Assembly (NCBI GenBank): GCA_012441205.1
Contig: GCA_012441205.1_4705.1
DNA: 64,000 bases
Source of the DNA: a phage
Direction: 5' to 3' (one strand)
Made by a program: the position numbers and the translations under genes
Notes under the pieces: generated by a model
Seen by the model: the letters and a program-made list of their open reading frames with translations, nothing else
What the model was told of the DNA's origin: nothing
The model's database searches: none
Shown here: one piece after another, positions 20,709 through 44,619 of the stretch
How positions within the stretch are numbered: the stretch's first letter is position 1
How the letters are laid out: every line of letters starts with the position of its first letter

Positions 20709-21935
20709 CTACTTCGTTTTCGCCGTTATCGGCTGCGATACTGTAATCTCGACCCGATCGACATCGGTACGTTTAACGATGATAAGGCTGCGTTCATCAC
20801 CGAATGGTTCTGAGATCTTACAAGCCTCTTTAAGATTTTCGAGAATCGTGCCATGGGGTTCAAACACCGCAAAACCGGAACTAGCGTCGATTCTTATTAA
20901 ATATACACGCACATTGTTTACGGTAATGGTGTCATCCGTCTTGAACCCACAGCAGGAGGGTAGACAGAACTGACCATTAACGCAATTAGCTAAGTATGCC
21001 TCACCACCGAACATTTCTATTAACGTCACCGGTTTAAATGTTTTCTCTGGGAAAGCATTATTAAGAATATCGTTTCCATTCACAAACCAGATCGTTACTT
21101 TATCTTCGGAATACGCTAGTCTGTATGGTTGGGTTGCGGACGCCTGCGCTTTATGCTGGTTAAATAACTTTGATTTTGTCGCAATCACAGCACGACCTTG
21201 GGCGTCAAAGTACAGAACTTCATACCCAACACATCCGATAAACACGCGACGGTTATTAAGTTCCGGAATTCTGACTACTAACGCATTACCATCTTCCGTC
21301 GGTGTAATACCACGTAGGATGATAGATTCGTTGTTCAATGTTGAGTTGCTCACGATGACGCTTCGCATTACCGCTGGCGACACTATTTCATCTGCTGCAG
21401 GTTCAAGTTGCTCCGCTGTTACAGTCACGGATCTGTCTTCCTTTTCAACTGGCCAGTTGAAAAGGATTGTTTTATTAAGACAAACAATTGGGGTAATTTC
21501 GCCGATACTCCGTATCTTGACTGAGGGGCAATTGCACACATACGGAACAAAAACATCAATATCGTTGGTCGCTTCTTCAAGCATGCTAGCATACGCCATT
21601 GCTTCGGGACGATCGGTGAGATGAATAACAGCATAGACGATATCGTCTTTTAACCACGCACGTTTCACTCGTCCTATAACACGATTGATGTCTACAATAA
21701 CTCTCTGAGCTTTCATCTCCCATTTTACTGCATCAGTACCACCCGCAACCACGTTCGGTTTATCCGTGTTTACACGATGAAGGAAACTATTGATTATTTC
21801 CTCATCGATCTGGATATCCTTTCTCGCAAAATTCAACAACGGAATAACGAACTCATTGTTACCGCACTTCTCTGCTCCGCGAATGATAGGAGTACACTTC
21901 TTGTTCTCATCTGATCCCCAGATAACTTTAGTCAT
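20709..21935 (-). CDS. hypothetical protein
   Basis: Track ORF 20709..21962; ATG at 21935 has AAGGAAAC upstream. No motif recognised. Confidence 0.55.
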   Translation of the reverse strand: MTKVIWGSDENKKCTPIIRGAEKCGNNEFVIPLLNFARKDIQIDEEIINSFLHRVNTDKPNVVAGGTDAVKWEMKAQRVIVDINRVIGRVKRAWLKDDIVYAVIHLTDRPEAMAYASMLEEATNDIDVFVPYVCNCPSVKIRSIGEITPIVCLNKTILFNWPVEKEDRSVTVTAEQLEPAADEIVSPAVMRSVIVSNSTLNNESIILRGITPTEDGNALVVRIPELNNRRVFIGCVGYEVLYFDAQGRAVIATKSKLFNQHKAQASATQPYRLAYSEDKVTIWFVNGNDILNNAFPEKTFKPVTLIEMFGGEAYLANCVNGQFCLPSCCGFKTDDTITVNNVRVYLIRIDASSGFAVFEPHGTILENLKEACKISEPFGDERSLIIVKRTDVDRVEITVSQPITAKTK

Positions 21936-21968
21936 TTTCTGTTTCCTTCTTGGGTTTTGCACAAGTTT

Positions 21969-29811: not shown

Positions 29812-30111
29812 TTAATGTTTAGGTTCCGTTTTGTGTTGTGCGAGTAATGTGTTGATCTGCTCCCGTTGTTCTTTTAAGCATGCAGGAAGCTGGTCTTCCC
29901 GTACCGTTCCGATTTCCAACGTGATGTACCAACGTTGTTCGGAAGCCTGCCATTGAAAACTGCTCTGTAACCTCAGGATGCTAGGATCACGTACCTTGCT
30001 TGCACTGTAACGGTTGAACCAATCCAGGTATGCTGCTTTCCCTTCCTCGTCAGCGATGTAACGCTGCACGCTGTTCTTCCCTTTGTTCTCGTATCCCGTT
30101 GCACGTATCAT
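29812..30111 (-). CDS. hypothetical small protein (putative early gene)
   Basis: Track ORF 29812..30165; start MIRATGY at 30111 overlaps the upstream stop as ATGA. Confidence 0.45.
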   Translation of the reverse strand: MIRATGYENKGKNSVQRYIADEEGKAAYLDWFNRYSASKVRDPSILRLQSSFQWQASEQRWYITLEIGTVREDQLPACLKEQREQINTLLAQHKTEPKH

Positions 30112-30890
30112 GCGAACGTTTCTCCTGTAATGTGTTGCGGATGGCGTAGCATGGTAGCATCCCATTGTACGATCTGGCTTCGGCTTACCCGCATCATGAT
30201 GGATTCGTCATCAAGCCCCTGTTGCGCAACCGGCAACCAACGTTCCCCAAGCACCTTCGCTTCAACACGTTTCTTGCGTGGGTTGTAACGCACCTCGCTA
30301 ACCCAAGCGAATCCAAGCGGATGGACTACCCGTGGATAAAACATGCGAAGCAATTGATGCATCCGATCCGTTGCCTCCAATTTGCCATCCACCATGTAAG
30401 GTTTCACCATGGTAAGCTTTTTGGTGTAATACGTTCCAACGGTATGGTTACGCCAACTTGGCAAGGCATGATCCCCTTCTCTCAGTTTGCTATCCGAGTT
30501 CATTGACCAGACCTGCTGTTTACCGGCCAGCATCGCGTACTGCCGATCAACGCAACGAACCCGATCGGCGAACAATGGATCCAGGACATCATCCACCGCG
30601 CCCTTATTGCGATAACCGTGATGTACCACCAACCTGCTTGCGCTCATCGATGCGGGATGCTGGCTCTTATGCGCATACAGCCCTCCGTCACCGCGAGCGT
30701 CGTAAAGATAACCGCATGCGCCACGCCATATCACCTTGCCTACGGTTCTCTCGTCTTCAAGCAGCATCGTCGGCCCATCAAGCAAATTGGTGAACCACTG
30801 CACCTTCACGCATTCCGCTTGGACATGCTCAGGTAATGCCTGATACTCTTTTTGGGTGTATAAGGTATCAAAAATGATTTCTTCGTTCAT
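30108..30890 (-). CDS. hypothetical protein, first gene after the AT-rich control region
   Basis: 260-aa ORF; no motif recognised. Confidence 0.55.
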   Translation of the reverse strand: MNEEIIFDTLYTQKEYQALPEHVQAECVKVQWFTNLLDGPTMLLEDERTVGKVIWRGACGYLYDARGDGGLYAHKSQHPASMSASRLVVHHGYRNKGAVDDVLDPLFADRVRCVDRQYAMLAGKQQVWSMNSDSKLREGDHALPSWRNHTVGTYYTKKLTMVKPYMVDGKLEATDRMHQLLRMFYPRVVHPLGFAWVSEVRYNPRKKRVEAKVLGERWLPVAQQGLDDESIMMRVSRSQIVQWDATMLRHPQHITGETFA

Positions 30891-31717
30891 TTAAAAAGTT
30901 CCTCTGTTTCACGTTAATTAAACAACGTATTGATTTCTATTTGACAGAATACGAACATCGTACGTATCTATCACTTAGGTAACGCTTACGCGTCGCGTTC
31001 ATGATACCATGCATCATGAAGGTAATATAGCCGTGAAAGGATTTGTGTTAACGCAAGGGTTTTGTTTGTTTTTTAAGAAGGGATGGATTTAGAAGAGGTG
31101 TTTCAAGGAAGGTAAACGAGAATAGGTATTTTGATTTAAGTAAGATGTTATCTGTATCCGTTAGAAGTGTATTGTCTAAGTTATCTTGTTTATCTTAGGT
31201 TTAATCGTTTTTATCTTGGTATGTTTAAGTTGTTTTTATTTAACTGTTAAAATGCTTATCTTCAAAACAATGGATAACATGTGTTTACTACGCTCGTTGA
31301 GTTATAACTCAACGGTAACACATGTCATCTGTGCATTACACTACGTTACATGCTAGTTAAATCGGATAACTCAAAAAAACATTTGTGATACTCTTCTTCA
31401 CGTTGTTCATCAGAGTATCTCGTCTATACTCATTGCATTCGTATACGACATAACCGTTACACGCTAACGCTACGCTTATAGCTTGATAACTCTAAGGATA
31501 AAAACATAAACTCGCTTCGCTCGTTTAGTTTTTCTTTTTCTTAGAGTTATCCTGTTGCTCGTCTCTAAAGGACTTCGCTCCTCCCCCGTCCCCCGAAGGG
31601 GCCGAGGTCGTGGAAATTTTACTTTCCAAATACATTTACAACATCTGTAAACTTTTACTCCAGGTACTTAATCTTATCATTAGAAATTATAAAAGAGAAA
31701 ATAAACACAAACATAAA
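30891..31717. other. AT-rich ORF-free region with direct and inverted repeats (candidate origin / promoter cluster / ncRNA locus)
   Basis: About 830 bp with no ORF of 60 aa or more; five TTATCT(T/G) repeats (31150-31260), GGATAAC/GAGTTATC repeats, palindrome CGTTGAGTTATAACTCAACG; no tRNA-like T-loop seen. Confidence 0.5.
30976..31038 (-). promoter_or_regulatory. tandem promoter-like motifs (TTAGGTAACGCTTACGCGTC and GAAGGTAATATAGCCGTGAAA on + strand)
   Basis: Minus strand reads CACGGCTATATTACCTTC; 90-130 bp upstream of minus gene 30108..30890. Confidence 0.45.
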
Positions 31718-31760: not shown

Positions 31761-32654
31761 TTATTCGGAAACGTTATAACCGAATACTGCTTTACCGTAG
31801 GTGTGAGTACCGTCAGCTAACGACAGCACCAACACATGGTTGTATGTAGCGTTAACGCCTTTATCGGTAGACCCGGTGGTAGCACCGTTATAGACAAAGG
31901 TAGCTGTTTGCAGATTGGTTTTCAGTTCATTGATGATATCATCACTTACACCAGTCTGTTCTTTAATCAGGGTGGTCAGGTTACCCGCTAAGCCTGCATC
32001 GATCTTGGTATCGTTACTGGTAATAGCTTGTAAACCTGCGGTGTAAGTACTGAAGTCTAACGGATAGGTTAACAGACGTGCTGAGGTCTTGGTACCATCG
32101 CCTTCATCAACGTAGGTTAAGTTACCCAGATTGGTAACCTTGATGATGTTAGCCAGATCCAGCGTGGTGTTATAAACTTTAACTTGAACAGAGCCATACC
32201 ACGCCAACGAATCTTCTTTGGCTTCCAGGGTGATCGTCTGGATACCATGCTGGTCGAAGGTAACCGGCGTAGCTAACGTTTCGGCTTTGATGTCTTTCGC
32301 TTTATCCAGGAACTTCTCACCGGAAGGCGTGATCATACCGTAGCGTTGAGCTACAAGGTCAACCACATCACCGATGGTGGTGTTCGCCTCAACGTTAACA
32401 CGTACAGCGATCTTCTGGAACCACTTAGCCAGATCCAGACGATGGTAGGTGACATCTCGGTTATTGAAGTAAGGGGTACCTTCACCAGGACTAAGTGTTA
32501 AAGTTGCTTCTGGAGCAGAAGGATTCTTTTCTTTAAGGACGTATTTAAGGTCGGTATATTTAAAGCTGGCACCAGTGTCAGCGTTAAGCTGGTTGATCTC
32601 ATCAACGATAAGTTGCCAAGGTGTTTTTAAAGTAAGCGATACTTGAGCAGTCAT
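31761..32654 (-). CDS. YYDR-domain paralog family member (structural protein candidate)
   Basis: Internal start MTAQVSL with GAGGAAG SD; shares YHRLDL ... LAWYGSV ... GYNV motifs with 43714, 45536, 46398 and 32794 genes. Confidence 0.55.
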   Translation of the reverse strand: MTAQVSLTLKTPWQLIVDEINQLNADTGASFKYTDLKYVLKEKNPSAPEATLTLSPGEGTPYFNNRDVTYHRLDLAKWFQKIAVRVNVEANTTIGDVVDLVAQRYGMITPSGEKFLDKAKDIKAETLATPVTFDQHGIQTITLEAKEDSLAWYGSVQVKVYNTTLDLANIIKVTNLGNLTYVDEGDGTKTSARLLTYPLDFSTYTAGLQAITSNDTKIDAGLAGNLTTLIKEQTGVSDDIINELKTNLQTATFVYNGATTGSTDKGVNATYNHVLVLSLADGTHTYGKAVFGYNVSE

Positions 32655-32793
32655 TTTCTTCCTCGATAGTTGGTACATCACTCTCAAAAGATGTAAGTGT
32701 TTACAGAAATTAATATATTTTATATTAAATGTGAATATTATGGAGAACGACTCCGAATCTCCTTTTCGACCATCAAAATCAGAGGACACGAAC

Positions 32794-33339
32794 ATGTCTA
32801 CTTTAGACTTTAACAAAGCAGCGAAATCCCTTCTGCTTGATCTTATTAACACCAAAGCGACCCGCACATTGGCTGAAGAAGAACTGCAGTTCGGTACTCC
32901 GCAGGAATCTTCCGAACATGAAAAGAACACCGTTATTCAGCTGGACGCGGCGGCTGAAGCAGCTAACCTGCAGGGTACTCAGCAGTTCTACTACGATCGT
33001 CTGGCTCTGTCTGACGTTTTCGCTGATGTAACTGGTGATGTTACTTTCGAACTGCCGCACGGTACTGACAGCATTCAGGCTTCTGAGCTGGTAAGCAAGC
33101 TGGTCACCAAATTCGGTCTGGCTTCCCTGAATGGTGAAATCAGAGAAGAAACCTTCCAGCTGTCTGCCGGTACTGTTGATGAGGTAATTCTGAATGCGAT
33201 CGAGGGTGGCCTGGTATACACTGGTACTCTGCGAGTTGCCCTGACCTACGCACTGGCACCAAAAGACGAACTGGCAACCGTTCTGGCGAATAACGTAGCT
33301 GAAGGTTTCGAGAAACCGACCGTTAGCGTTGTTGGCTAA
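32794..33339 (+). CDS. abundant small virion protein candidate, minimal member of YYDR-domain family
   Basis: Strongly biased E. coli-like codon usage; FYYDRLAL ... FGLASL ... LVYTGTLRVAL matches the family domain; GAGGA before ATG at 32794. Confidence 0.6.
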   Translation: MSTLDFNKAAKSLLLDLINTKATRTLAEEELQFGTPQESSEHEKNTVIQLDAAAEAANLQGTQQFYYDRLALSDVFADVTGDVTFELPHGTDSIQASELVSKLVTKFGLASLNGEIREETFQLSAGTVDEVILNAIEGGLVYTGTLRVALTYALAPKDELATVLANNVAEGFEKPTVSVVG

Positions 33340-33632: not shown

Positions 33633-34268
33633 TTACTCAACACTGAACCCGTTCAAGATGATCGCTTCATAACGCTTACGTTCACGACGTTTGCGTGCCT
33701 GCCAACCGTAGATGAATTTCTCATCTTTCTCACGACGTTCCGCTAATTCGATGTAATAGGTGCTCTGCATGTCCAGCATCGCATCGATGAGATAATCCTT
33801 ACCGGTTGCACCACGCTTAGCGATGTAAGCGTCGAGCGCGCTTAACGTCGCAGGTCCCATCAAACCGTCGGCGTTGATATTCTTCCAGTACGTTTGTCGG
33901 TTGTTCATGACGTTCAGATAACGTTGGAGGTTCTTAACCGGGACGGTTTTGCCAGCATTGATACCCAGGTCAAAGAGACGGTCAGCTAAGAACACAGAAC
34001 GTTTCATGACTTCGTCAAGTTTCATCTTATCCCAGAAGTGGGTCTTGTAGATAAAGAACGCCATTTCCGTGGTAAGGTTACGCATGTTACCGTCCCAGCC
34101 GAATTTCGTTTTCAGCGTGGTTTTGTATTGATCGGCGAGTGTTTTCGTAATGCCGTGGTTCGTGATTCCACCCGAGTCATCGGGATCGTCGACGTAACCT
34201 GCTTCGATGCTGGTTTTATCGCGAATGATAAATTCGCACGTGAAATCTTTCTCAGTAATCTTAGCCAT
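33633..34268 (-). CDS. endolysin, GH108-type muramidase with C-terminal peptidoglycan-binding domain
   Basis: EAGYVDDPDDSGGITNHGIT matches the GH108 signature EGGYxxDPxDxGGxTxxGIT; Trp/Gly-rich C-terminal half is consistent with PG_binding_3. Confidence 0.75.
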   Translation of the reverse strand: MAKITEKDFTCEFIIRDKTSIEAGYVDDPDDSGGITNHGITKTLADQYKTTLKTKFGWDGNMRNLTTEMAFFIYKTHFWDKMKLDEVMKRSVFLADRLFDLGINAGKTVPVKNLQRYLNVMNNRQTYWKNINADGLMGPATLSALDAYIAKRGATGKDYLIDAMLDMQSTYYIELAERREKDEKFIYGWQARKRRERKRYEAIILNGFSVE

Positions 34269-34394: not shown

Positions 34395-36443
34395 TTAAAT
34401 ACCCTTGGTTCCCTTCACGTGATGTGCAATTTCTTCAACCATTGCACGCAGAGCACGAAGTTGTTGGTCATGTTCGTACCAACCACCCAACAGAACCCCG
34501 CTATACACCATGGTGTCAAGACTTAACAGCCCTTTATCTGATACGTTGATCATTTCCGGGAACTGTTCTTGAACACGCTGTGCGATAACACCGATCTTCT
34601 CGACATCAGGATCGTAGTTGTGACGGAAACGGGCAAGTCCGGTATACGCCATTTCACGTAAACGATCACTGAAAGATTCCGGATGATCTTTCAGATAACG
34701 AATGTCATGTTTACTACGTTCATCCGAGCGAATGTAAGCGTTAGGAACATCGATATTGCTGTTGAAGTACAGCGCACTACCACCGCCTGCAGAGTTCCCC
34801 CAATAGAAGCGTGTGATCTCACCGCCACCATTCTCCGTGATGATGACATGTTTACCTAAACGCGTACCGCCACTACCATCAACGAAGACCAGTTTGTTTC
34901 CGCTGTAAGAACCCCAGAACAAACGTGTATCGATGATGTGCGTTGCAGCGAGGCGGGCGTTACGTGGCGTAGAATACACGGTGTTAACATCTTGCTGCGC
35001 TTGCGCATCGGAAGCGATACCATAGTTCTGTACGTTACCTAACCCAACCTGCGCTTTCGTAACCGCGTGTGGGTTATCACGACGGTTAGCGTGAGCGTTA
35101 ACCAGATCACCCGCTAATTTCTGAATTGCCCAGTTGGTAGACTGTGGTGTCATGTAACGGTTAGTTGCAGAACCACCTTGCGCTTCAGCTTGGTTAGCGG
35201 TTGGATAGTTCTCAACGCTTCCCAAACCGACCTGCGCTTTGGTTACTCTGTGTGGGTTGTTCTTGTCAGCGATGTGCGCATTAAGCGGAACTAACGCAAA
35301 GGTCTCAATGGACGCTTTGGTTGTGTTCGGTGCCATTAATCGGTTAGCTGCAACACCGGCACGCGCTTCTTCTTCAGAAGCCATCGGATAGTCTTGCACA
35401 TTCCCTAACCCAACCTGCGCTTTGGTTACTCTGTGTGGGTTGTTGTAATCGGCTTTATGTGCATTAAGTGGAATCAATGCGAACTGTTCAATCGCTGCAA
35501 CAGTGCGTAGCGGCGTCATGAAACGGTTGTTCGCTGTTCCGGCTTTCGCCTCATCATCCGAAGCGGTCGGGAAGTTATCAACGTTCCCAAGGTTAACCTG
35601 TGCTTTGGTGACGCTATGCGGGTTGTCTCGACGGTTAGCGTGAGCGTCGACTAGATCGCCCGCCAGTTTAGCAATCGCCCATCCAACCGTTTGTGCTGTC
35701 ATGTAACGGTCTGGTGCGGTACCGGCTTCTGCCTCCGCCTTGTTGGCAGTAGGATAGTTCTGTACATTACCTAGTCCGACTTGGGCTTTTGTGGTTTCGT
35801 GCGGGTTATCGGTACGGTTAGCATGTGCGTAATGCAGATCGGTCAGATCTTTATCCGCTGCTTGCATGTCTTTGCGTAACTGATCGATTGCCGCCCAGAG
35901 ACGGTTATCGGATGCAGCATCACCGATAAGTATTGCGGCTTTCAGTGAATAGATCGCTAAGCAAAGATGTTCGGTACCGTAGATAGCACTAACGTGGTGG
36001 ATGTGTGGTTCAGGCGGATAAAGTTCCGGTTTGTTCTTGATGTCGTCCCAGTTGATCGGACGATCGTCAAGTTTGAGTTCTTCGATAGCCTGATACAACG
36101 CGTCAATAAGACTTACGTAAACACCACCGATGATACGATAGTCGTTAACTAACGTCCCCTCGATATCATCGTTGATGATGGCGATGGCTGCACAGATTTC
36201 TTTACCAGCGTAAAGCGTAGCGTCCTGATACAAGAAGATGGGTTTGTAATCCACGCCGCGTACCAGTGTCTTACCGGTAAGCTTTTCAGTGATGACCAGA
36301 CTTTCGGTGAAGAACGGTCCGCCATCAAGAGCGTAACATTTGTTCTCGGTTCGTGGAACGGTATGCTCTTCACCAACGATGTGGTTGCTATCGAGCGTGC
36401 CGGTCCAGTCCTCGGGGTACTTCAGGGTAATTGGTGTTGACAT
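34395..36443 (-). CDS. tail fibre protein with five ~45-aa fibre repeats and C-terminal intramolecular chaperone (S74-like) domain
   Basis: Five repeats of NRxDNPHxVTKAQVGLGNVxNY...NRYMT (about 35125-35835); C-terminal SDERSKHDI ... GVIAQRVQEQFPEM ... LRALRAMVEE resembles the autoproteolytic chaperone of endosialidase/T5 pb1-type fibres. Confidence 0.8.
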   Translation of the reverse strand: MSTPITLKYPEDWTGTLDSNHIVGEEHTVPRTENKCYALDGGPFFTESLVITEKLTGKTLVRGVDYKPIFLYQDATLYAGKEICAAIAIINDDIEGTLVNDYRIIGGVYVSLIDALYQAIEELKLDDRPINWDDIKNKPELYPPEPHIHHVSAIYGTEHLCLAIYSLKAAILIGDAASDNRLWAAIDQLRKDMQAADKDLTDLHYAHANRTDNPHETTKAQVGLGNVQNYPTANKAEAEAGTAPDRYMTAQTVGWAIAKLAGDLVDAHANRRDNPHSVTKAQVNLGNVDNFPTASDDEAKAGTANNRFMTPLRTVAAIEQFALIPLNAHKADYNNPHRVTKAQVGLGNVQDYPMASEEEARAGVAANRLMAPNTTKASIETFALVPLNAHIADKNNPHRVTKAQVGLGSVENYPTANQAEAQGGSATNRYMTPQSTNWAIQKLAGDLVNAHANRRDNPHAVTKAQVGLGNVQNYGIASDAQAQQDVNTVYSTPRNARLAATHIIDTRLFWGSYSGNKLVFVDGSGGTRLGKHVIITENGGGEITRFYWGNSAGGGSALYFNSNIDVPNAYIRSDERSKHDIRYLKDHPESFSDRLREMAYTGLARFRHNYDPDVEKIGVIAQRVQEQFPEMINVSDKGLLSLDTMVYSGVLLGGWYEHDQQLRALRAMVEEIAHHVKGTKGI

Positions 36444-36456
36444 AACCTGGAGGTCC

Positions 36457-39054
36457 TTATAACGTGACTGTACCTAATTTGGTTGTCTTATTGAGATTAA
36501 TGACTGAGATCTGGGTATCGCTGGTCGTGATGGTGCCGATATTAACGCGCTGTCCTTTATCATCCTCTTGCTTGTGGATGGTTAATTCCAGCTCTAACTG
36601 GTTACCATTAGGAACAACGGAAACGTACCATGTTTTATTACCTGGTGAGCTATTATAGTCTTTTAGGTTATAATGGCCTTTAGGTAAGGTCATGGCCTTA
36701 CCAGCAAACAAACATGAAATATCCTCGTTGATATAAACGTCGAAACCGGAAGAAGCGATGACTGTTGAGGCCATTATTCGAGACGCGACGATACCACGAT
36801 TATAGTCGTCGATTGTGGTACCTATGACATTGAATACTTGCCCCCCGTTACCCATAATGGTCGATTCGCTAGTGTTTACGTAGCCGATACCCCAAGTCGG
36901 ATGAATGTTCCAGCGGTACCCACTGTTTTGTAAATATGTATACAAGTCTTCATAGGCCGCATTCACCCAACTACCATCACTTTTTCGTCCAGCCCTAAAT
37001 TGGAATGTATTGCTATTTCCAGATGTTCCTCGGCCAAGAGGGACATGTCCCGCCACTAACCAACCATCTGTACTTTGCATATACGCGAACGAACCGTACG
37101 CTCTGTTATCGGCCCAAATATTCACGGTATCAACACGTTCAACGTAGGCGATCACCTTTTGTACGCCGGTTATAGCGATCGAACCCTTGCGTGCCGACAC
37201 ACTAACTTCAGCAATTACGACACCCATTTTCCGCTGGCTGCTGTTAAATCCCAATACAACCATTAAACACGGTGCGTTTGTTGTTTCTGGAGGAATCGTT
37301 ATCGATTGTTTCCAGTCGGTGATTCCGCTGAGTTTTGTTCCAGTATATGCGTTCCAGACGGTTTGTCCAGCCGATTTCAGATTCTGTTCAGAAATAGAAA
37401 TGGCCTCGCCCTCAGGGATTAACGTGTCGTAATTGAGACCAATGTTGCTGGATAGACGAAGGTCGTTTAAGTAAGATCCGCTGAGTGTGACGTTACCGTT
37501 ACGATAAATTGTCAAGAATGGCGCAGCCAGGGAGTTTAATACCGTAAAGTTACTCGATGGCATGAAACCATAGACATCGATGCCATTACCGTGGTAATGG
37601 TAGTTTGTCCAACTACCTTGATAACTTACGGTACGTGCATCGTAGTGGCCTTGTCCAAGACCGCTGCTGGATAACGTGTATATCTTGGTTGCTGATAGAA
37701 ATGCGAGATATCCATGCGCTGCCAGAGCTCCAACTACCCTGTCTTTTATCTTTAACCAAGCTGAAGTATACAACGTACTGTCGGGATTCATTTTGGCTAT
37801 TTCATCGTAAGCCGTGCCTGCGAAGTTTCCGATAGTGTACGTACGTATATCCGGCTGTCCGTTATTGTCGTTCTGTACAGCAATTACTTGCCCAGAATCA
37901 TTGATATCGATATTACCGATACAGTTGTGAGCCCCCCACACCCAATATCCATCTTTATAATTGGATTCTCCTTGTGTAAATGTCGACGGTCCTCGCCACG
38001 CGATGCCGTTCGATTCGGCGTAGTAGGTAGCTTGTCCCGATCCTGGATTCATGGCGTATCTGTTATTGGTCGGGTCAAAATCGATGTAAAAATGATGCAT
38101 TCCTTGACGTTGACGGTTGTCCCGATCATTTGTCCACCACGACGAACCGACCAGAATTCGCGCCTTACCATTTTTTACAGTGGACCATAAACGTATTGCG
38201 GCGCGCCAGACGATTTGACCGATCCCGTTGGACGGGAAACTATTCGTACTGATGCTGTTGCAGACAACGAGCTCGCTGCTGTTGTTTATTTGAGTCCCTT
38301 CAATTGTAACGCCGTTTATGTTAGTAATCAGTGTTGCCGATACACTACCCCCTGTAGGGGCGATAGAGGAACGTTGAACGGTGTAAATTTTTAGTGATAA
38401 TTTATAGCCGCTCCGAATAGCTATACCAATGTAAATAGTTCCGTTAATTTCCCAACAACAAACATCGGGCATTGTTTCTTTGAAATCGGATAAAGCACCG
38501 TCGATATACATCGCAACGTGTTTACTGGCGTCGAATGTGCCGTCCGTTAACGCGATGAACATTTTGGCGTTATTGCCGTTGATATCAGCCGCTAATCCGA
38601 GTAGTATGTTGTTCTGATGACAGTAGATGGCTTTAGGTGCTAGATCCAACATAGCTGGTTGGTACTGTCGGCTTGTTGGTATTACGCTAGTAACTGCACC
38701 ATTTTGATCCGTTTTACAAATAACGTAATATACACCGTGTATGATGCTGTTTGTCGCTGACCTCAGTAGGACGATCGTCCCGTCAGATTCACGACATATA
38801 CCGTAATGGCGATAGTCGGTGATTAAACCGATAGCGCCATCGGCCGAACCTTCGATTGCCAGAGGAAAATAACTTTGGTCCCCAACCTGTTCGATATCGG
38901 TTGCGCCGATATCGATGTATTTTTCCATCTCAGTGTTGAACTCAGCGGTACTGTAGGCACCGAGATCGCTCGCCTTTAGTCCCGTTGGGTTGTCACGACT
39001 GGCGATACGTGTAGTAACGCTACTCACCAGTTCGCTGAACTTTTTCATTGCCAT
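36457..39054 (-). CDS. distal tail fibre / receptor-binding protein candidate
   Basis: 865 aa, Gly/Asn/Ser/Thr/Trp/Tyr-rich; N-terminus carries one degenerate fibre-repeat-like motif (RDNPTGLKASDLG). Confidence 0.6.
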   Translation of the reverse strand: MAMKKFSELVSSVTTRIASRDNPTGLKASDLGAYSTAEFNTEMEKYIDIGATDIEQVGDQSYFPLAIEGSADGAIGLITDYRHYGICRESDGTIVLLRSATNSIIHGVYYVICKTDQNGAVTSVIPTSRQYQPAMLDLAPKAIYCHQNNILLGLAADINGNNAKMFIALTDGTFDASKHVAMYIDGALSDFKETMPDVCCWEINGTIYIGIAIRSGYKLSLKIYTVQRSSIAPTGGSVSATLITNINGVTIEGTQINNSSELVVCNSISTNSFPSNGIGQIVWRAAIRLWSTVKNGKARILVGSSWWTNDRDNRQRQGMHHFYIDFDPTNNRYAMNPGSGQATYYAESNGIAWRGPSTFTQGESNYKDGYWVWGAHNCIGNIDINDSGQVIAVQNDNNGQPDIRTYTIGNFAGTAYDEIAKMNPDSTLYTSAWLKIKDRVVGALAAHGYLAFLSATKIYTLSSSGLGQGHYDARTVSYQGSWTNYHYHGNGIDVYGFMPSSNFTVLNSLAAPFLTIYRNGNVTLSGSYLNDLRLSSNIGLNYDTLIPEGEAISISEQNLKSAGQTVWNAYTGTKLSGITDWKQSITIPPETTNAPCLMVVLGFNSSQRKMGVVIAEVSVSARKGSIAITGVQKVIAYVERVDTVNIWADNRAYGSFAYMQSTDGWLVAGHVPLGRGTSGNSNTFQFRAGRKSDGSWVNAAYEDLYTYLQNSGYRWNIHPTWGIGYVNTSESTIMGNGGQVFNVIGTTIDDYNRGIVASRIMASTVIASSGFDVYINEDISCLFAGKAMTLPKGHYNLKDYNSSPGNKTWYVSVVPNGNQLELELTIHKQEDDKGQRVNIGTITTSDTQISVINLNKTTKLGTVTL

Positions 39055-39066
39055 TATTCACCTCGA

Positions 39067-39552
39067 TTAAATAGGCGAGTCGGGTAGCTGACCATCATCG
39101 ATCTCGATGGTGGCCACCTTACGTGTTGCAGCAAGATGTGATGTACCCTGGATTTTGTTCCAGGTGCCGATACGCATGGCGTTTTTGTAGCTGCTATCGC
39201 TATCGTTCAGCGTGTAAACAAAACCGCTATCGGTTACGGCAAGATAGATCCAGCCTACAGACTCACTGATGCCTGACACATCCAAAGTTGCTGCTGGCAC
39301 CGTCCCTACCACCGTGTTGTATTCCGCTGTACCTTGACCAATGCTGATCCGGCCGTTGCTGTAAGTGGCTGCCGGAAGCGTTTTATTTCGACTGAAGAAA
39401 AGAAACGGAAGGTAACGCTGAGTAACAAGCGGTGCAAGTTTAGGAGCCACTTCGGTCTTAACGTAGACATTTGTTTGTGCTGGCGTTACCTCGTGAGGGT
39501 TCTTTTGGGTGAGATACGCTCCCCATTCAGAAAGCAATGTTGATAGCTTCAT
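39067..39552 (-). CDS. small tail-fibre-associated protein (paralog of 39557..40072)
   Basis: N-terminus LSEWGAYLTQKNPHEVTPAQ carries the NPHxVTxAQ motif of the fibre repeats. Confidence 0.5.
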   Translation of the reverse strand: MKLSTLLSEWGAYLTQKNPHEVTPAQTNVYVKTEVAPKLAPLVTQRYLPFLFFSRNKTLPAATYSNGRISIGQGTAEYNTVVGTVPAATLDVSGISESVGWIYLAVTDSGFVYTLNDSDSSYKNAMRIGTWNKIQGTSHLAATRKVATIEIDDGQLPDSPI

Positions 39553-39556
39553 GCGG

Positions 39557-40072
39557 TTACCCCATGTAACGTTTTTGGCCGAGGATGAAGACTTTGTTGA
39601 ATACCACCGAAGTGATTCCTGTTGCGTTACAGCTCACCTGCCCGACGCGAATTGCTGTTGATGTATCGACCCCAGCACTACTCTGCCAGATCCAATCGAT
39701 CGATCCGTCTTTCTGACGAATGAAAAGATAACCGGTTTTGTTCGCCCAGTCGGAAGTAAGTTTTTTGATGTCTAGCGTTCCCTTCGCCAGAATATAGTCG
39801 GTACCGGCGATCATGACGGGTATTTCAGGATACGAGATTACCGTACCGCTGGCAGTAACGTTGCTGATGCGTTCGCTACGAATATCGGTACAGTCACCGA
39901 AATACGCTACGGGGAGTATCCCCTTAGGGAGCTTTTTGCCGATTCTCGTATCGATCGTGTTTTTATCGGGTGCGTCGATTTGCGCTGCGGTGACTTGGTT
40001 AGGGTTATCCTTCCTTGCGTACCATGTCGTCATGCGAGCACCCAATTCACTCATTTTTGTGCCCATTTTCAC
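39557..40072 (-). CDS. small tail-fibre-associated protein (paralog of 39067..39552)
   Basis: N-terminus MSELGARMTTWYARKDNPNQVTAAQ; similar layout to neighbour. Confidence 0.5.
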   Translation of the reverse strand: MKMGTKMSELGARMTTWYARKDNPNQVTAAQIDAPDKNTIDTRIGKKLPKGILPVAYFGDCTDIRSERISNVTASGTVISYPEIPVMIAGTDYILAKGTLDIKKLTSDWANKTGYLFIRQKDGSIDWIWQSSAGVDTSTAIRVGQVSCNATGITSVVFNKVFILGQKRYMG

Positions 40073-40123
40073 ATCCTATCGAAAAATAAAAAGAAGGAAA
40101 GGTGGGTAGAACCCACCCATCCG

Positions 40124-42277
40124 TTATAACGTTTCGAAGTCGGTTGCTTTGATAACCGCGTTGAAGTTGGCAAGGAATTCCTTAAGCAGTGCTTGGAAGA
40201 CATCACGAAACGCTGTGTTCGTCTGCAAGCTGGTTAAATAATCGTTCTTAAGGTAATCGCTCAGCTTACCGATCTTCTGCATCTTCTCGCCGTCTTGGTT
40301 CTCTCCAGGTTCTTGGCTGTTGATGTTAACCCATTTGATCCCTTCGAGATCACCATCGGCAAGGAAGTTGGCGGGTGTCTCATCGTCGTTCAGGATTTTA
40401 ATCGTATCACTGGATTCAATGCCACCGTAAGCTTCCAGAAGCTGGTTGACTGTTAGCTTATTGGTGTTGATTGAACCATTGACACCATCGATACCGATGC
40501 CTGCACCTGTGATGGATGTCGCCGAAAGATCGATCGGTCCGGTTAACTTACCACCGTTGATCGGTAACGCACCAACTTGCTCAGCGGTGTGTGTATGGTC
40601 AGCTAACGCCGCAAACGCCACGATAGACTTATATGTCGAATACGGCGTCATATACGCTGATTGGTTGGTGTTGTCAGCCGCTTCAGTATCGGTAGCGACA
40701 TTAAAGTTCTGCACGTTGCTGAGACCGACCTGCACCTTCGTTACTTCATGCGGGTTGTTCTTATTGACAACGTGTGCTGCAAAACCATCACCAGCTAAAG
40801 CAGTGATTGCCGCTTTTGTCGCAGCCGGTGTCATATAGCGGTTGGTTGCTTCACCCGTTTGCGCCTCTTCGTCGGAAGCAACAGGATAGTTCTCAACGCT
40901 TCCCAAACCGACCTGAGATTTTGTTACTTGGTGTGGGTTTTCGGTATTCGCAATATGACTACTGAACCCTTGACCCGCCAGTTGCTCGATTGCGTAACGA
41001 ACAAGTATTGGTGTCATGTACTTGTTGTTAACTTGACCATCGATAGCTTCTTGGGTGGTGGCAACCCCGAAGTTTTGCACGCTCCCCAACCCAACTTGAG
41101 ATTTTGTTACCCCATGGGGGTTATTGGTGTTACCGATGTGTTCGGTTACAGTTGGGGTGATTAATGCTGCGATAGCGGCTGCTGTGGTCGCAGGTGTCAT
41201 GTATTTATCGTTAGCAACACCCGCAGCAGCTTCTACGTTAGATGCTAAACCGTAGTTCAATACACTACCCAACCCAACCTGAGCCTTGGTTACCCCATGG
41301 GGGTTGTTCTTGTCTCCGGTATGGGTTGTCAACGAAGCATTAACGTTATCGATACGTGTACTTAAGCCATCGGTGATTGCTTTGATTGCGGCTCGTACAC
41401 CCGCTGGAGTCGTGTACAGATTTGTGGCCGTACCGGTAATAGTTGTATTACTATCGGCTACACCGTAGTTCTCAACGTTTCCGAGTCCGATCTGTGCCTT
41501 GGTCACCTTGTGTGGGTTGTTGTAGTTGCTGATGTGCGCAGCGGCACTATCACCACTCAGGTTAGCGATCATCTTACGTGTCATCGCCAACGTCATGTAC
41601 AGATTTTCACCGATGGTTTCCAGATCGCTCTCGGTCGCCGTTGTGAAGTTCTGCACATTCCCTAACCCAACCTGAGCCTTGGTTACCCCGTGGGGGTTAT
41701 CGCGACGATTCTCGTGCTGCAACAATGCGGTCATTGCTTTATTGAACCCTTCTTCAAGCGGTTCTTTCAATGATTCGATTGCAGCTACCACATCGTCCCA
41801 CGTCATTGTGTCGGTTTCGACATTATGCTGGTGGTTAATTGGCGGGAATACGGAAGGAACGTCGGCAACCTTTTCCCAGAATGTAACGCGAGGGTCGTAA
41901 AGGTTGTTGGCTAAAACGTTAAGAATTTGCTGCTGATCGAGTGTAAACTCACCCCCCAGTGAATAGTAGTTCAGTTGCAACTGTCCACTGAATGCGGTGT
42001 CCAACAGCATGATGGAACCGTATAATTCCAGGCCGGTCAGCGCAGCCATGGCACGGAAGGGGTGAGTGCATAAAAAGTCAACGCCTTCTTCCAGATACGC
42101 GTTTGTTTCAGGGTTATAGATCTTTAACCCATTACGAAAATATGGCGCGTATTTAGGAACGAGAAAGTTAAATCCGGTCCCCGTGGAAGGACGGACAGTG
42201 ACGAGTTCTTCTGGAACCCATGCGCCATCCAAATTCCCCTGCGGGTTATACGGAAGGCGTTTAATTTCATCTGTCAT
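40124..42277 (-). CDS. tail fibre protein with six fibre repeats
   Basis: Six repeats of NPHGVTK(A/S)QVGLG(N/S)V(Q/E)N(F/Y) (about 40867-41710); N-terminal domain resembles that of 34395..36443. Confidence 0.8.
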   Translation of the reverse strand: MTDEIKRLPYNPQGNLDGAWVPEELVTVRPSTGTGFNFLVPKYAPYFRNGLKIYNPETNAYLEEGVDFLCTHPFRAMAALTGLELYGSIMLLDTAFSGQLQLNYYSLGGEFTLDQQQILNVLANNLYDPRVTFWEKVADVPSVFPPINHQHNVETDTMTWDDVVAAIESLKEPLEEGFNKAMTALLQHENRRDNPHGVTKAQVGLGNVQNFTTATESDLETIGENLYMTLAMTRKMIANLSGDSAAAHISNYNNPHKVTKAQIGLGNVENYGVADSNTTITGTATNLYTTPAGVRAAIKAITDGLSTRIDNVNASLTTHTGDKNNPHGVTKAQVGLGSVLNYGLASNVEAAAGVANDKYMTPATTAAAIAALITPTVTEHIGNTNNPHGVTKSQVGLGSVQNFGVATTQEAIDGQVNNKYMTPILVRYAIEQLAGQGFSSHIANTENPHQVTKSQVGLGSVENYPVASDEEAQTGEATNRYMTPAATKAAITALAGDGFAAHVVNKNNPHEVTKVQVGLSNVQNFNVATDTEAADNTNQSAYMTPYSTYKSIVAFAALADHTHTAEQVGALPINGGKLTGPIDLSATSITGAGIGIDGVNGSINTNKLTVNQLLEAYGGIESSDTIKILNDDETPANFLADGDLEGIKWVNINSQEPGENQDGEKMQKIGKLSDYLKNDYLTSLQTNTAFRDVFQALLKEFLANFNAVIKATDFETL

Positions 42278-43713: not shown

Positions 43714-44619
43714 TTATGCTACATATAACGTCAGATAACCGTCGATGAGCGTATTCATCACACTGAGTTGAAGTACGACAGCTTTACTACCATCTGTACG
43801 TACACCGAACGGTAGTGTTTTGAATTGCTCTGGATCGGCTATTACTTGCGCATTCTGCAAGTTGAGCGGTCCAGGCATTGCTGACAATACCCAGCGATCG
43901 TTGACCATAAGGCCGTCGATCTCTTCAGAGAGACCCAATTGCAGTGCGTTCATTTCTGCGATTAGTGCCTCCGATTGCGTATCGCCTGAGGTTAGCGTAT
44001 ACCCATCGGTAAGCGATGCCAGAACACCAGCAGATACGAACCAGTTGTACGAAACAATAGCGCCTGGGAGTTTACTGCTATCTCGATCGATGATATAATT
44101 CAACCCAGCCAACATATTGTTGCGAACGAGGTTGTTGAGGTCATTATGTCCTGAGGTTAACTCAACAAGTAACTGACCAACCCATACTTGGTTACCGGGT
44201 TTAGGTGTTATCATAACCTGTATCGGTGACTTGGACTTATCCAGATCCGCGTCGACAATCTCGGTTTTGTTGAGAAGGATACCGTACGTCGATGCTAAGA
44301 CAGGTAGGATCTCAGAGACCTTGGTTAATGCATCTAAGGTTTCGATCTCGATGGGCCAGCGGTGCTGTCCGCCAGACCAGGTACCCAGTTTACCAAGATC
44401 GATGCGGTTATAATAGATGTCGACAGAGTTCACCAACCCTGAACCCGGTTGGGGATGCACGGTTAACTTGCTGTTACGCTTGTACCATGTGCTTTCAGAA
44501 GCCTCACCGATAACCAGTTTATCCAGCGTTACGCCTCGAGCATCGAAATCGCTATGCTTTCGAATCAGCAGAAAGAGGATTTCTTTCGATTCTAACCCCA
44601 GGATTTCACTGTACTCCAT
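43714..44619 (-). CDS. YYDR-domain paralog family member (structural protein candidate)
   Basis: IYYNRIDLG ... VWVGQLLVEL ... DRWVLSAMPGPLNLQNAQV shared with 46398 (DRWVLDDNIAPYNLYNAKV). Confidence 0.6.
   Translation of the reverse strand: MEYSEILGLESKEILFLLIRKHSDFDARGVTLDKLVIGEASESTWYKRNSKLTVHPQPGSGLVNSVDIYYNRIDLGKLGTWSGGQHRWPIEIETLDALTKVSEILPVLASTYGILLNKTEIVDADLDKSKSPIQVMITPKPGNQVWVGQLLVELTSGHNDLNNLVRNNMLAGLNYIIDRDSSKLPGAIVSYNWFVSAGVLASLTDGYTLTSGDTQSEALIAEMNALQLGLSEEIDGLMVNDRWVLSAMPGPLNLQNAQVIADPEQFKTLPFGVRTDGSKAVVLQLSVMNTLIDGYLTLYVA

Follow-up and report, generated by a model that had tools for sequence, protein, structure and literature searches.

Nucleus-forming chimalliviruses, among them Goslar and phiKZ, serve as model phages and are candidates for phage therapy. 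In phiKZ, electron cryomicroscopy (cryo-EM) showed that the tail fibres include gp131, gp133, gp134 and gp135; the N-domains of three copies of gp131 and of one copy each of gp133, gp134 and gp135 form a hetero-hexamer with a six-helix bundle beneath gp130, the outer-baseplate platform that serves as the docking site for the fibres and is present in twelve copies alongside twelve fibres, and gp131 carries a seven-bladed propeller at its distal, C-terminal end (PMC13250141). No transposon insertions were found in gp131-gp135 (PMC12676376). For Goslar, a cryo-EM preprint names gp25 and gp29 as likely tail-fibre components (10.64898/2026.04.21.720040). Here we analyzed a stretch of 64,000 nucleotides of phage DNA (contig GCA_012441205.1_4705.1; "the window"), in which positions 34395-42277 hold five open reading frames (ORFs) of 717, 171, 161, 865 and 682 amino acids, all on the minus strand. 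We refer to them as A, B, C, D and E in their order of transcription. With a probability of roughly 0.8, this locus is the tail-fibre (peripheral baseplate fibre) cluster of a Goslar-like phage and corresponds to phiKZ gp131-gp135.

Escherichia phage vB_EcoM_Goslar is collinear with the window throughout, at about 96-97.6% nucleotide identity, and for the locus itself an alignment covering 82% of it shows 93.4% identity to Goslar. Genes A to E correspond to Goslar gp029 to gp025 (NC_048170, 18462-26350), with the same order and lengths (D, in which the centre is replaced, has 865 residues and gp026 has 867). Judged from its sequence, the phage is a Goslar-like, nucleus-forming jumbo phage of the Chimalliviridae. 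The gaps between A and B, B and C, C and D, and D and E measure 51, 4, 12 and 13 nucleotides. The span given to B by the ORF caller (39557-40072, 171 residues) opens at a GTG codon; all nine of nine database homologues and Goslar gp028 begin two codons later, with MGTKMSEL, and B therefore probably starts at the ATG at 40066 (169 residues). An earlier note on this DNA, made from the sequence alone, had placed a five-gene tail-fibre module at exactly these coordinates.

Evidence for fibre identity comes in part from A and E, both of which begin with a gp131-like anchor domain that is absent from B, C and D. A matched phiKZ gp131 (blastp, E 2e-43), and E matched phiKZ gp135, gp131, gp134 and gp133 (E 8e-31 to 9e-21). 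Among the PHROG families, A matched phrog_2163 (E 1e-136) and phrog_13857 (E 1e-114) and E matched phrog_2163 (E 2.5e-144); the families matched strongly by the two proteins are tail and virion-structural ones. Furthermore, the neighbouring 426-residue protein matched phrog_3337 and, over residues 1-337, phiKZ gp130 (blastp, E 1e-26), and the same arrangement of paralogues beside an opposite-strand gp130 gene is found at 133101-141381 of phiKZ. From these matches and the synteny we conclude that the module represents, in the Goslar lineage, a fibre system that was already known. The tail-fibre identity proposed in the earlier note thus stands on the PHROG matches, the gp131-like anchor, the gp130 neighbour and the presence of the Goslar homologues in virions, described below. 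By homology with phiKZ, the N-domains of A and E would dock beneath the gp130-like outer-baseplate protein and may co-assemble as mixed hexameric stubs, and the repeats that follow the anchor would make up a trimeric shaft. B, C and D matched the phiKZ paralogues through the repeat motif only (E 5e-4 to 9e-3). Neither the anchor domain nor the tip of A had a model in Pfam or NCBIfam, and the same was true of B, C and D; sequence searches of the PDB with A and D gave nothing meaningful. Ribosomal-protein matches at E 0.01 in the PDB searches were judged spurious, weak matches to Lyase_8, Blr_divisome and LIC10280 fell below the cut-off and were discarded, and a literature search found no paper joining YomR with the term tail fiber.

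We next consider the repeat itself. The motif NPHxVTKxQVGLGxV recurs with a period of about 61 residues in A, where the NPH motifs stand at residues 194, 254, 325, 386, 447 and 508, and in E, where they stand at residues 213, 274, 335, 396 and 457; the counts of six and five repeats given earlier for the 717- and 682-residue proteins are correct by these positions. In an alignment of the 11 units, H7, N13-P14-H15, T18, K19, Q21, L24, V27 and A33 are invariant, and each unit consists of a short helix-like stretch (xxxAHxxxxxNPH), the core VTKAQVGLGNV(Q/E)NY and then A(S/T)xxEAxxGxxxxxYMTPxxxxxAI. The array of A matches that of E at a blastp E of 1e-89, so the arrays are not a product of chance, and individual copies score E 1e-27 to 1e-33 against a profile built from the 11 units. 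When this profile was run against the six-frame translation of the window, it found, beyond the arrays, only B (E 0.004) and C (E 0.05). Tandem Repeats Finder detected no array in the DNA of the fibre genes, where the repeats have diverged too far for it and are visible at the protein level only, and they are thus old duplications. The family is very large: at E<=1e-3 the profile recovered 16,776 cluster representatives, at E<=1e-30 it recovered 817, and a single protein may hold as many as 29 units. Even so, it has no Pfam model and no solved structure in our searches: Pfam gave no match to the repeat with the whole proteins (E<=0.1) or with the isolated array or a single unit (E<=10), NCBIfam had no model for it, and a sequence-profile search of the PDB found no chain carrying it. 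The match to Phage_fiber_2 (PF03406) that the earlier note had put forward as a check was therefore not obtained, although the repeat is real and associated with fibres. In phiKZ, gp131 has two NPHxVT motifs and gp132-gp135 have one each, gp132 being essentially a single repeat with no anchor.

The three remaining proteins share a short N-terminal segment and differ in what follows it. B and C align over residues 1-71 (blastp, E 1e-7), and B and D have their first ~55 residues in common (E 7e-5). Profile-profile comparison with hhalign, using small family alignments of the parts of B, C and D and of the repeat, related the N-terminus of B to that of D (96% probability, E 4e-9) and of C (94.5%, E 8e-8), as well as to the repeat (89%, E 2e-6, over 22 columns); the N-terminus of C also matched the repeat (74.5%, E 3e-5). 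Thus the claim that all five proteins carry the repeat motif or a remnant of it holds for A, E, B and C, and for D only transitively, through the N-terminus of B. We suggest that this adaptor of about 55 residues derives from the first part of the repeat. At the other end, the C-terminal domains of B and D are homologous (95.5%, E 1.5e-8). C-terminal homology of C with either B or D was also sought with hhalign and was not significant, so that B and C, described earlier as two small paralogues, are paralogous over their N-terminal 60-70 residues and not in their C-terminal parts. The C-terminal domain of B resembles in fold the heads of receptor-binding proteins (RBPs) of lactococcal phages p2 and 1358 and of other phage fibres, and the body of D is predicted to contain a beta-propeller with a fold like that of lectins, sialidases and GH43 enzymes.

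Related phages carry these modules in fused form. In Erwinia phage Deimos-Minion, gp18 consists of the anchor, the repeat and a B-like C-terminal domain, gp19 of the anchor, the repeat and a D-like body, and gp20 of the repeat and a D-like body; phrog_3573 likewise spans a fibre N-terminal part and a D body. Moreover, B, C and D and Deimos-Minion gp18-gp20 all have a junction motif, hPhxx[FY]G, after the repeat or adaptor. Because B, C and D have the adaptor with no anchor, and because fused versions exist in these relatives, we infer that the three proteins are detached fibre-distal modules. They would join the fibre apparatus non-covalently through the adaptor, D would probably occupy a distal position, and its propeller and sandwich would set specificity.

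Fibre E differs from A in ending with a chaperone domain. Pfam Peptidase_S74 (PF13884) matched residues 573-631 of E with an E-value of 7.7e-6 and 26.6 bits (gathering cut-off 22), covering profile positions 1-56 of 58; on related contigs the match was graded "weak". The match begins exactly at S573, the first residue of SDERSK at residues 573-578, and the C-terminus of E can be aligned with that of phage S16 gp37 (PDB 6f45), which bears a chaperone; the alignment includes its SDRRIK. The domain thus forms the last 110 residues of a protein that also has fibre PHROG matches and a gp131-like anchor, and the S74-like chaperone with an SDxxxK context that had been noticed at the end of the 682-residue fibre is confirmed at the level of sequence. 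T5 pb1 is cleaved between Thr1263 and Ser1264, the serine being activated by Lys1269 (PMC4690869). The spacing of five residues between serine and lysine is the same in E (S573/K578), and we therefore predict that E is cut at the bond R572|S573, that K578 activates the serine and that a chaperone of 110 residues is released. Fibre E would fold with its own S74 chaperone and cut itself once trimeric, and the mature fibre would have 572 residues and a short tip. We also digested Goslar gp25 in silico and compared the expected peptides with the A-D range of the alphabetical list of virion peptides. Peptides from the mature part of gp25 were present among those listed, whereas the chaperone-domain peptides AMVEEIAHHVK and DHPESLSER, the only two in the A-D range, were missing, which is consistent with removal of the chaperone but is not proof of it.

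Comparison with Goslar and other relatives showed that variation in the cluster is concentrated in D. Amino acid identity to Goslar is 99.8% for the gp30 homologue, 98.5% for A, 97.7% for B, 96.9% for C and 98.1% for E, and only 65.5% for D. Within D, the first ~40 and last ~80 residues are nearly 100% identical to gp026 and the centre is 42-65% identical; the tract at 36600-38900 is the largest within the 64 kb that has diverged from Goslar. Database alleles of D show 96, 89, 80, 66, 48 and 34% identity, and in the five alleles compared the adaptor and the C-terminal domain are conserved while the propeller and the sandwich vary. In one relative (L008; GCA_014829495.1, a Salmonella assembly) the identities are 48% for D, 84% for C, 89% for B, 93% for A, 97% for E and 99% for gp30. 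D is what sets phages apart that are nearly identical elsewhere, and we therefore regard it as the most likely determinant of the surface glycan or host that is recognized; additional binding modules that can be exchanged are the tips of A and E. The exact sequence of D is also present on contigs of 238-240 kb in two NCBI bacterial assemblies. Goslar-like genomes occur as single contigs of 236-240 kb in assemblies of bacterial isolates (L011/L013, GCA_020395325.1 and GCA_020241865.1; L008, GCA_014829495.1), and some homologues carry Salmonella enterica protein names. This suggests that lytic jumbo phages were carried in the sequenced cultures, and that the host range reaches Salmonella.

A more distant relative (L010, 1395-6308) showed exchange at the fibre tips. 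Its cluster has a gp30-like gene and an A-like fibre with a terminal Invasin_D3/Big_1 Ig-like domain; its E-like fibre, which lacks an S74 domain, shows 61% identity as far as residue 501, and next come a gene for a 197-residue Phage_tail_APC-like chaperone and then B-, C- and D-like genes. Going by these gene assignments, L010 is a natural case in which an intermolecular chaperone has taken the place of an intramolecular one. From this layout we conclude that tips and chaperones are exchanged as cassettes and that the B-C-D trio moves together. The suggestion in the earlier note that multiple fibres with shared modules permit modular switching of host range is hence supported by comparison, D being a hot spot of divergence and both fibre tips being swapped in L010.

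The published Goslar data allowed us to examine the presence of these proteins in virions. All five homologues were detected by mass spectrometry in purified virions (Table S4), with copy numbers per virion estimated by label-free quantification (LFQ) at ~87 for gp25, ~75 for gp29, ~14 for gp28, ~14 for gp27 and ~13 for gp26; in CsCl-purified virions gp27 and gp28 were found with 36-61% sequence coverage and at the level of gp26 (10.64898/2026.04.21.720040). The ratio of A:B:C:D in Goslar virions is thus about 6:1:1:1. These estimates run high, LFQ overestimating baseplate proteins of known copy number 1.5-3.7-fold: 179 copies were estimated and 48 modelled for gp32, 26 and 12 for gp220, 8.5 and 3 for gp13, and 4.7 and 3 for gp48, and gp30 was estimated at 18 copies as compared to the 12 of gp130 in phiKZ. 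Rescaling the published values would give ~26-58 copies each of gp25 and gp29 and ~4.5-9.5 each of gp26-gp28. The former would be compatible with 36+36 anchor domains, that is, with twelve hexameric bases, perhaps of composition A3E3. The latter we read as about six copies each, with eighteen each (six homotrimers) lying within the published range.

A hairpin directly after A (GGGTGGGTTCTACCCACC followed by a T-rich tail) has the same stem-loop in Goslar and L008, and may attenuate transcription into the low-copy genes B, C and D. However, E lies downstream of the hairpin and is abundant, so that a link between the hairpin and the level of B, C and D is tentative. A pattern scan found fewer sigma-70 promoter-like sites than in shuffled sequence; such sites are uninformative here because the phage has its own RNA polymerases.

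How B, C and D are arranged on the virion can be read in several ways. The reading that is slightly ahead of the next is that they are three independent, homotrimeric RBPs, each attached separately by the common adaptor to equivalent sites of the fibre or baseplate, in a branched, multi-RBP apparatus like that of phages with several tailspikes. Consistent with this, the three have a common adaptor and different bodies, the C-terminal domain of B is like RBP heads that are trimeric in p2, 1358 and other fibres, Erwinia phages carry B-like and D-like modules on separate anchor-bearing proteins, and the estimated 9-22 copies of each fit 18. However, independent proteins do not require the strict equimolarity seen for B, C and D, the rescaled numbers favor about six copies over 18, and propeller bodies tend to be monomeric for each set of blades. 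We hold this arrangement to be a tentative one.

Alternatively, B, C and D may form a 1:1:1 heterotrimer through their adaptors, giving a pseudo-trimeric stalk with one monomeric propeller protein. About six such heterotrimers per virion would sit on or cap the homotrimeric fibres, in parallel with the single-copy gp133, gp134 and gp135 of phiKZ, whose fibre base already includes three paralogues in one copy each. All that B, C and D have in common is their N-terminal 55-70 residues, their genes are contiguous even in the rearranged cluster of L010, and Goslar gp28, gp27 and gp26 are present at 14, 14 and 13 copies, about one sixth of gp25 or gp29, which on rescaling would leave the numbers given above for the trio and for each fibre. 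On the other hand, LFQ is rough and its range includes 18 copies of each protein as six homotrimers, the RBP heads resembled by B's C-terminal domain are normally homotrimeric, and the direct similarity between the adaptors of C and D is weak. The heterotrimer is accordingly possible but somewhat unlikely. Doubtful, too, is the fuller architecture in which a B-C-D heterotrimer breaks the three-fold symmetry of the fibre, about six hypervariable, monomeric, lectin-like D propellers act as the specificity sensor, and A and E form mixed hexameric bases like those of phiKZ.

The long-fibre genes 34-37 of T4 run in the order long, small, small, long, and the order and sizes of A-D resemble them. 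A, B, C and D might thus build one serial long fibre like T4 gp34-35-36-37, with A as the proximal half, B and C as hinges, D as the distal half and E as a separate second fibre, and both the equimolarity of B, C and D and the terminator-like hairpin that separates them from A would suit such a design. A serial fibre is nonetheless improbable: A is about six times as abundant as B, C and D in Goslar virions, A and E share their type of anchor and occur in similar amounts, which points to a joint role, and no similarity to T4 gp35 or gp36 was found in any library searched, B and C having no family matches in Pfam, PHROG or NCBIfam. Finally, that B and C are merely non-structural assembly chaperones for D or the fibres, as their small size and position between fibre genes, like that of many tail-fibre chaperones, could suggest, is very improbable and was rejected because both homologues are found by mass spectrometry in CsCl-purified Goslar virions at the coverage and level given above; moreover, neither matches a chaperone family, and the C-terminal domain of B is homologous to that of D itself.

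Several observations weigh against the reading of the locus as a fibre cluster equivalent to phiKZ gp131-gp135, or against parts of it. The Goslar cryo-EM maps come with no peripheral-baseplate or fibre assignment (10.64898/2026.04.21.720040), and neither an experiment nor a structure locates any of the five in the fibre, whether in Goslar or in the present phage. The N-terminus of D compared on its own with the repeat was not significant in hhalign (E 0.01). Conservation of D's C-terminal domain, in place of variability, is unusual in a receptor-binding tip, and the divergence of D could have arisen by recombination with no change of receptor. With respect to the chaperones, the mass-spectrometric support for loss of the S74 domain amounts to two missing peptides among the A-D peptides listed, and the Phage_tail_APC match in L010 scores 24.6 bits, just under the Pfam cut-off of 26.6.

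Table 1. Features of the five-gene cluster and of the genes on either side of it. Nucleotide positions refer to the window; residues are numbered within each protein.
Feature	Position	Strand	Remarks
Homologue of phiKZ gp130 / Goslar gp030, 426 aa	42382..43662	+	divergent from the fibre genes
Fibre A, 717 aa	40124..42277	-	= Goslar gp029; N-terminal anchor, six repeats, tip
Fibre A, anchor domain	~residues 1-181	-	gp131-like
Fibre A, repeat array	residues 182-556, DNA 40610-41734	-	six 61-aa units
Fibre A, end of protein		-	degenerate seventh half-unit (ADHTHTAEQVGALP) after the repeats, then 150-aa C-terminal tip
GC-rich hairpin	40100..40118	-	terminator-like; from a pattern scan; directly after the fibre A stop codon
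Small protein B, 169 aa from ATG at 40066	39557..40066	-	= Goslar gp028
B, domains			~60-aa N-terminal adaptor including half-repeat DNPNQVTAAQ, then C-terminal beta-sandwich
Small protein C, 161 aa	39067..39552	-	= Goslar gp027; N-terminal adaptor NPHEVTPAQ, paralogous to that of B
Protein D, 865 aa	36457..39054	-	= Goslar gp026; candidate specificity determinant
D, N-terminal adaptor	~residues 1-60, DNA 38875-39054	-	
D, predicted beta-propeller	~residues 84-500, DNA 37555-38805	-	
D, beta-sandwich region	~residues 510-705, DNA 36940-37527	-	
D, C-terminal domain	~residues 760-865, DNA 36460-36777	-	homologous to that of B
D, hypervariable tract	~36600-38900	-	
Fibre E, 682 aa	34395..36443	-	= Goslar gp025; gp131-like N-terminal anchor
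Fibre E, repeat array	residues 201-505, DNA 34929-35843	-	five 61-aa units
Fibre E, short tip	residues 506-572	-	~67 aa
Fibre E, Peptidase_S74 domain	residues 573-682, DNA 34398..34727	-	intramolecular chaperone
Endolysin-like protein	33633..34268	-	GH108 + PG_binding_3; directly downstream of fibre E, co-oriented

The gene that follows E encodes an endolysin-like protein with Pfam matches to GH108 (E 1e-20) and PG_binding_3 (E 1e-18), which, at 92.4% amino acid identity, is more diverged from Goslar than most of its neighbours. Its Goslar homologue, gp024, was estimated by LFQ at ~76 copies per virion, a level like that of gp25 and gp29 (10.64898/2026.04.21.720040). The protein may be a hydrolase that travels with the virion as part of the fibre or baseplate complex, or a carry-over from the lysate. 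Proteins of the DUF7941 family are encoded on both sides of the cluster, at 31761-33339 (both strands) and 43714-44619 (minus strand), and are homologues of Goslar gp22, gp23 and gp31, which are suggested to make up a host-recognizing "fibre cloud" (10.64898/2026.04.21.720040). Their identities to Goslar are 88.9% (gp22), 87.3% (gp23) and 98.7% (gp31); the divergence of the gp22 and gp23 homologues thus marks a second variable zone just downstream of the fibre cluster. Elsewhere in the window, about 650 bp at 21300-21950 (ORF 20709-21962, minus strand) have no nucleotide match in Goslar and replace the N-terminal half of the hypothetical gp009 homologue, and a short tract at 30300-30900, in the hypothetical gp021 homologue (ORF 30108-30890, minus strand), has little or no match.

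Altogether, the kind of fibre system found here was already known from phiKZ gp131-gp135 and Goslar gp25-gp29; the assignment of the gp26-gp28-type modules, the allele series of D and the stoichiometric model are new. The analysis ties the Goslar-type five-gene cluster to the gp130/gp131-135 fibre system of phiKZ. In the Goslar record (NC_048170) gp026-gp028 are annotated only as hypothetical proteins, and the passages of the literature that were searched contained no receptor or tail-fibre assignment for this phage; we read the three proteins, which are present in virions, as probable detached fibre-distal modules. D is a natural hot spot of variation, with alleles ranging from 96% to 34% identity, and this series marks it out as an obvious choice for the engineering of host range and for receptor mapping. 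The heterotrimer, if true, would provide a concrete architecture for the tail fibres of Goslar.

Compared with described systems, the C-terminal domain of E is of the kind shared by the K1F endosialidase, T5 pb1 and gp37 of the S16/T2 type, with a serine at its start, a lysine five residues on and a helical region after it; the receptor-binding domains of T5 pb1 and the endosialidase are, however, far larger than the ~67 residues that lie in E between the last repeat and the predicted cut. The closest relatives of the modular parts are gp17-gp20 of Deimos-Minion (Agricanvirus) and the jumbo-phage proteins of phrog_3573, in which the anchor, the repeat, the junction motif, the D-like body and the B-like C-terminal domain all recur; there, single polypeptides combine the distal modules with anchor and repeat, whereas here the modules are encoded by separate genes. 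With phiKZ, the locus shares a gp131-like N-domain followed by the NPHxVT repeat, five co-oriented genes next to a divergent gp130 homologue, and a family of paralogues that differ in their distal parts and include members with no anchor, such as phiKZ gp132. The two systems differ in that phiKZ has four anchor-bearing paralogues with one or two repeats each and the present phage has two with five or six, and none of the phiKZ paralogues in the region examined has an S74 domain. Furthermore, phiKZ has no described equivalent of the B-C-D trio with its short common adaptor, and whereas the distal propeller of phiKZ is part of gp131, a propeller not necessarily related to it is here predicted in a separate polypeptide, D.

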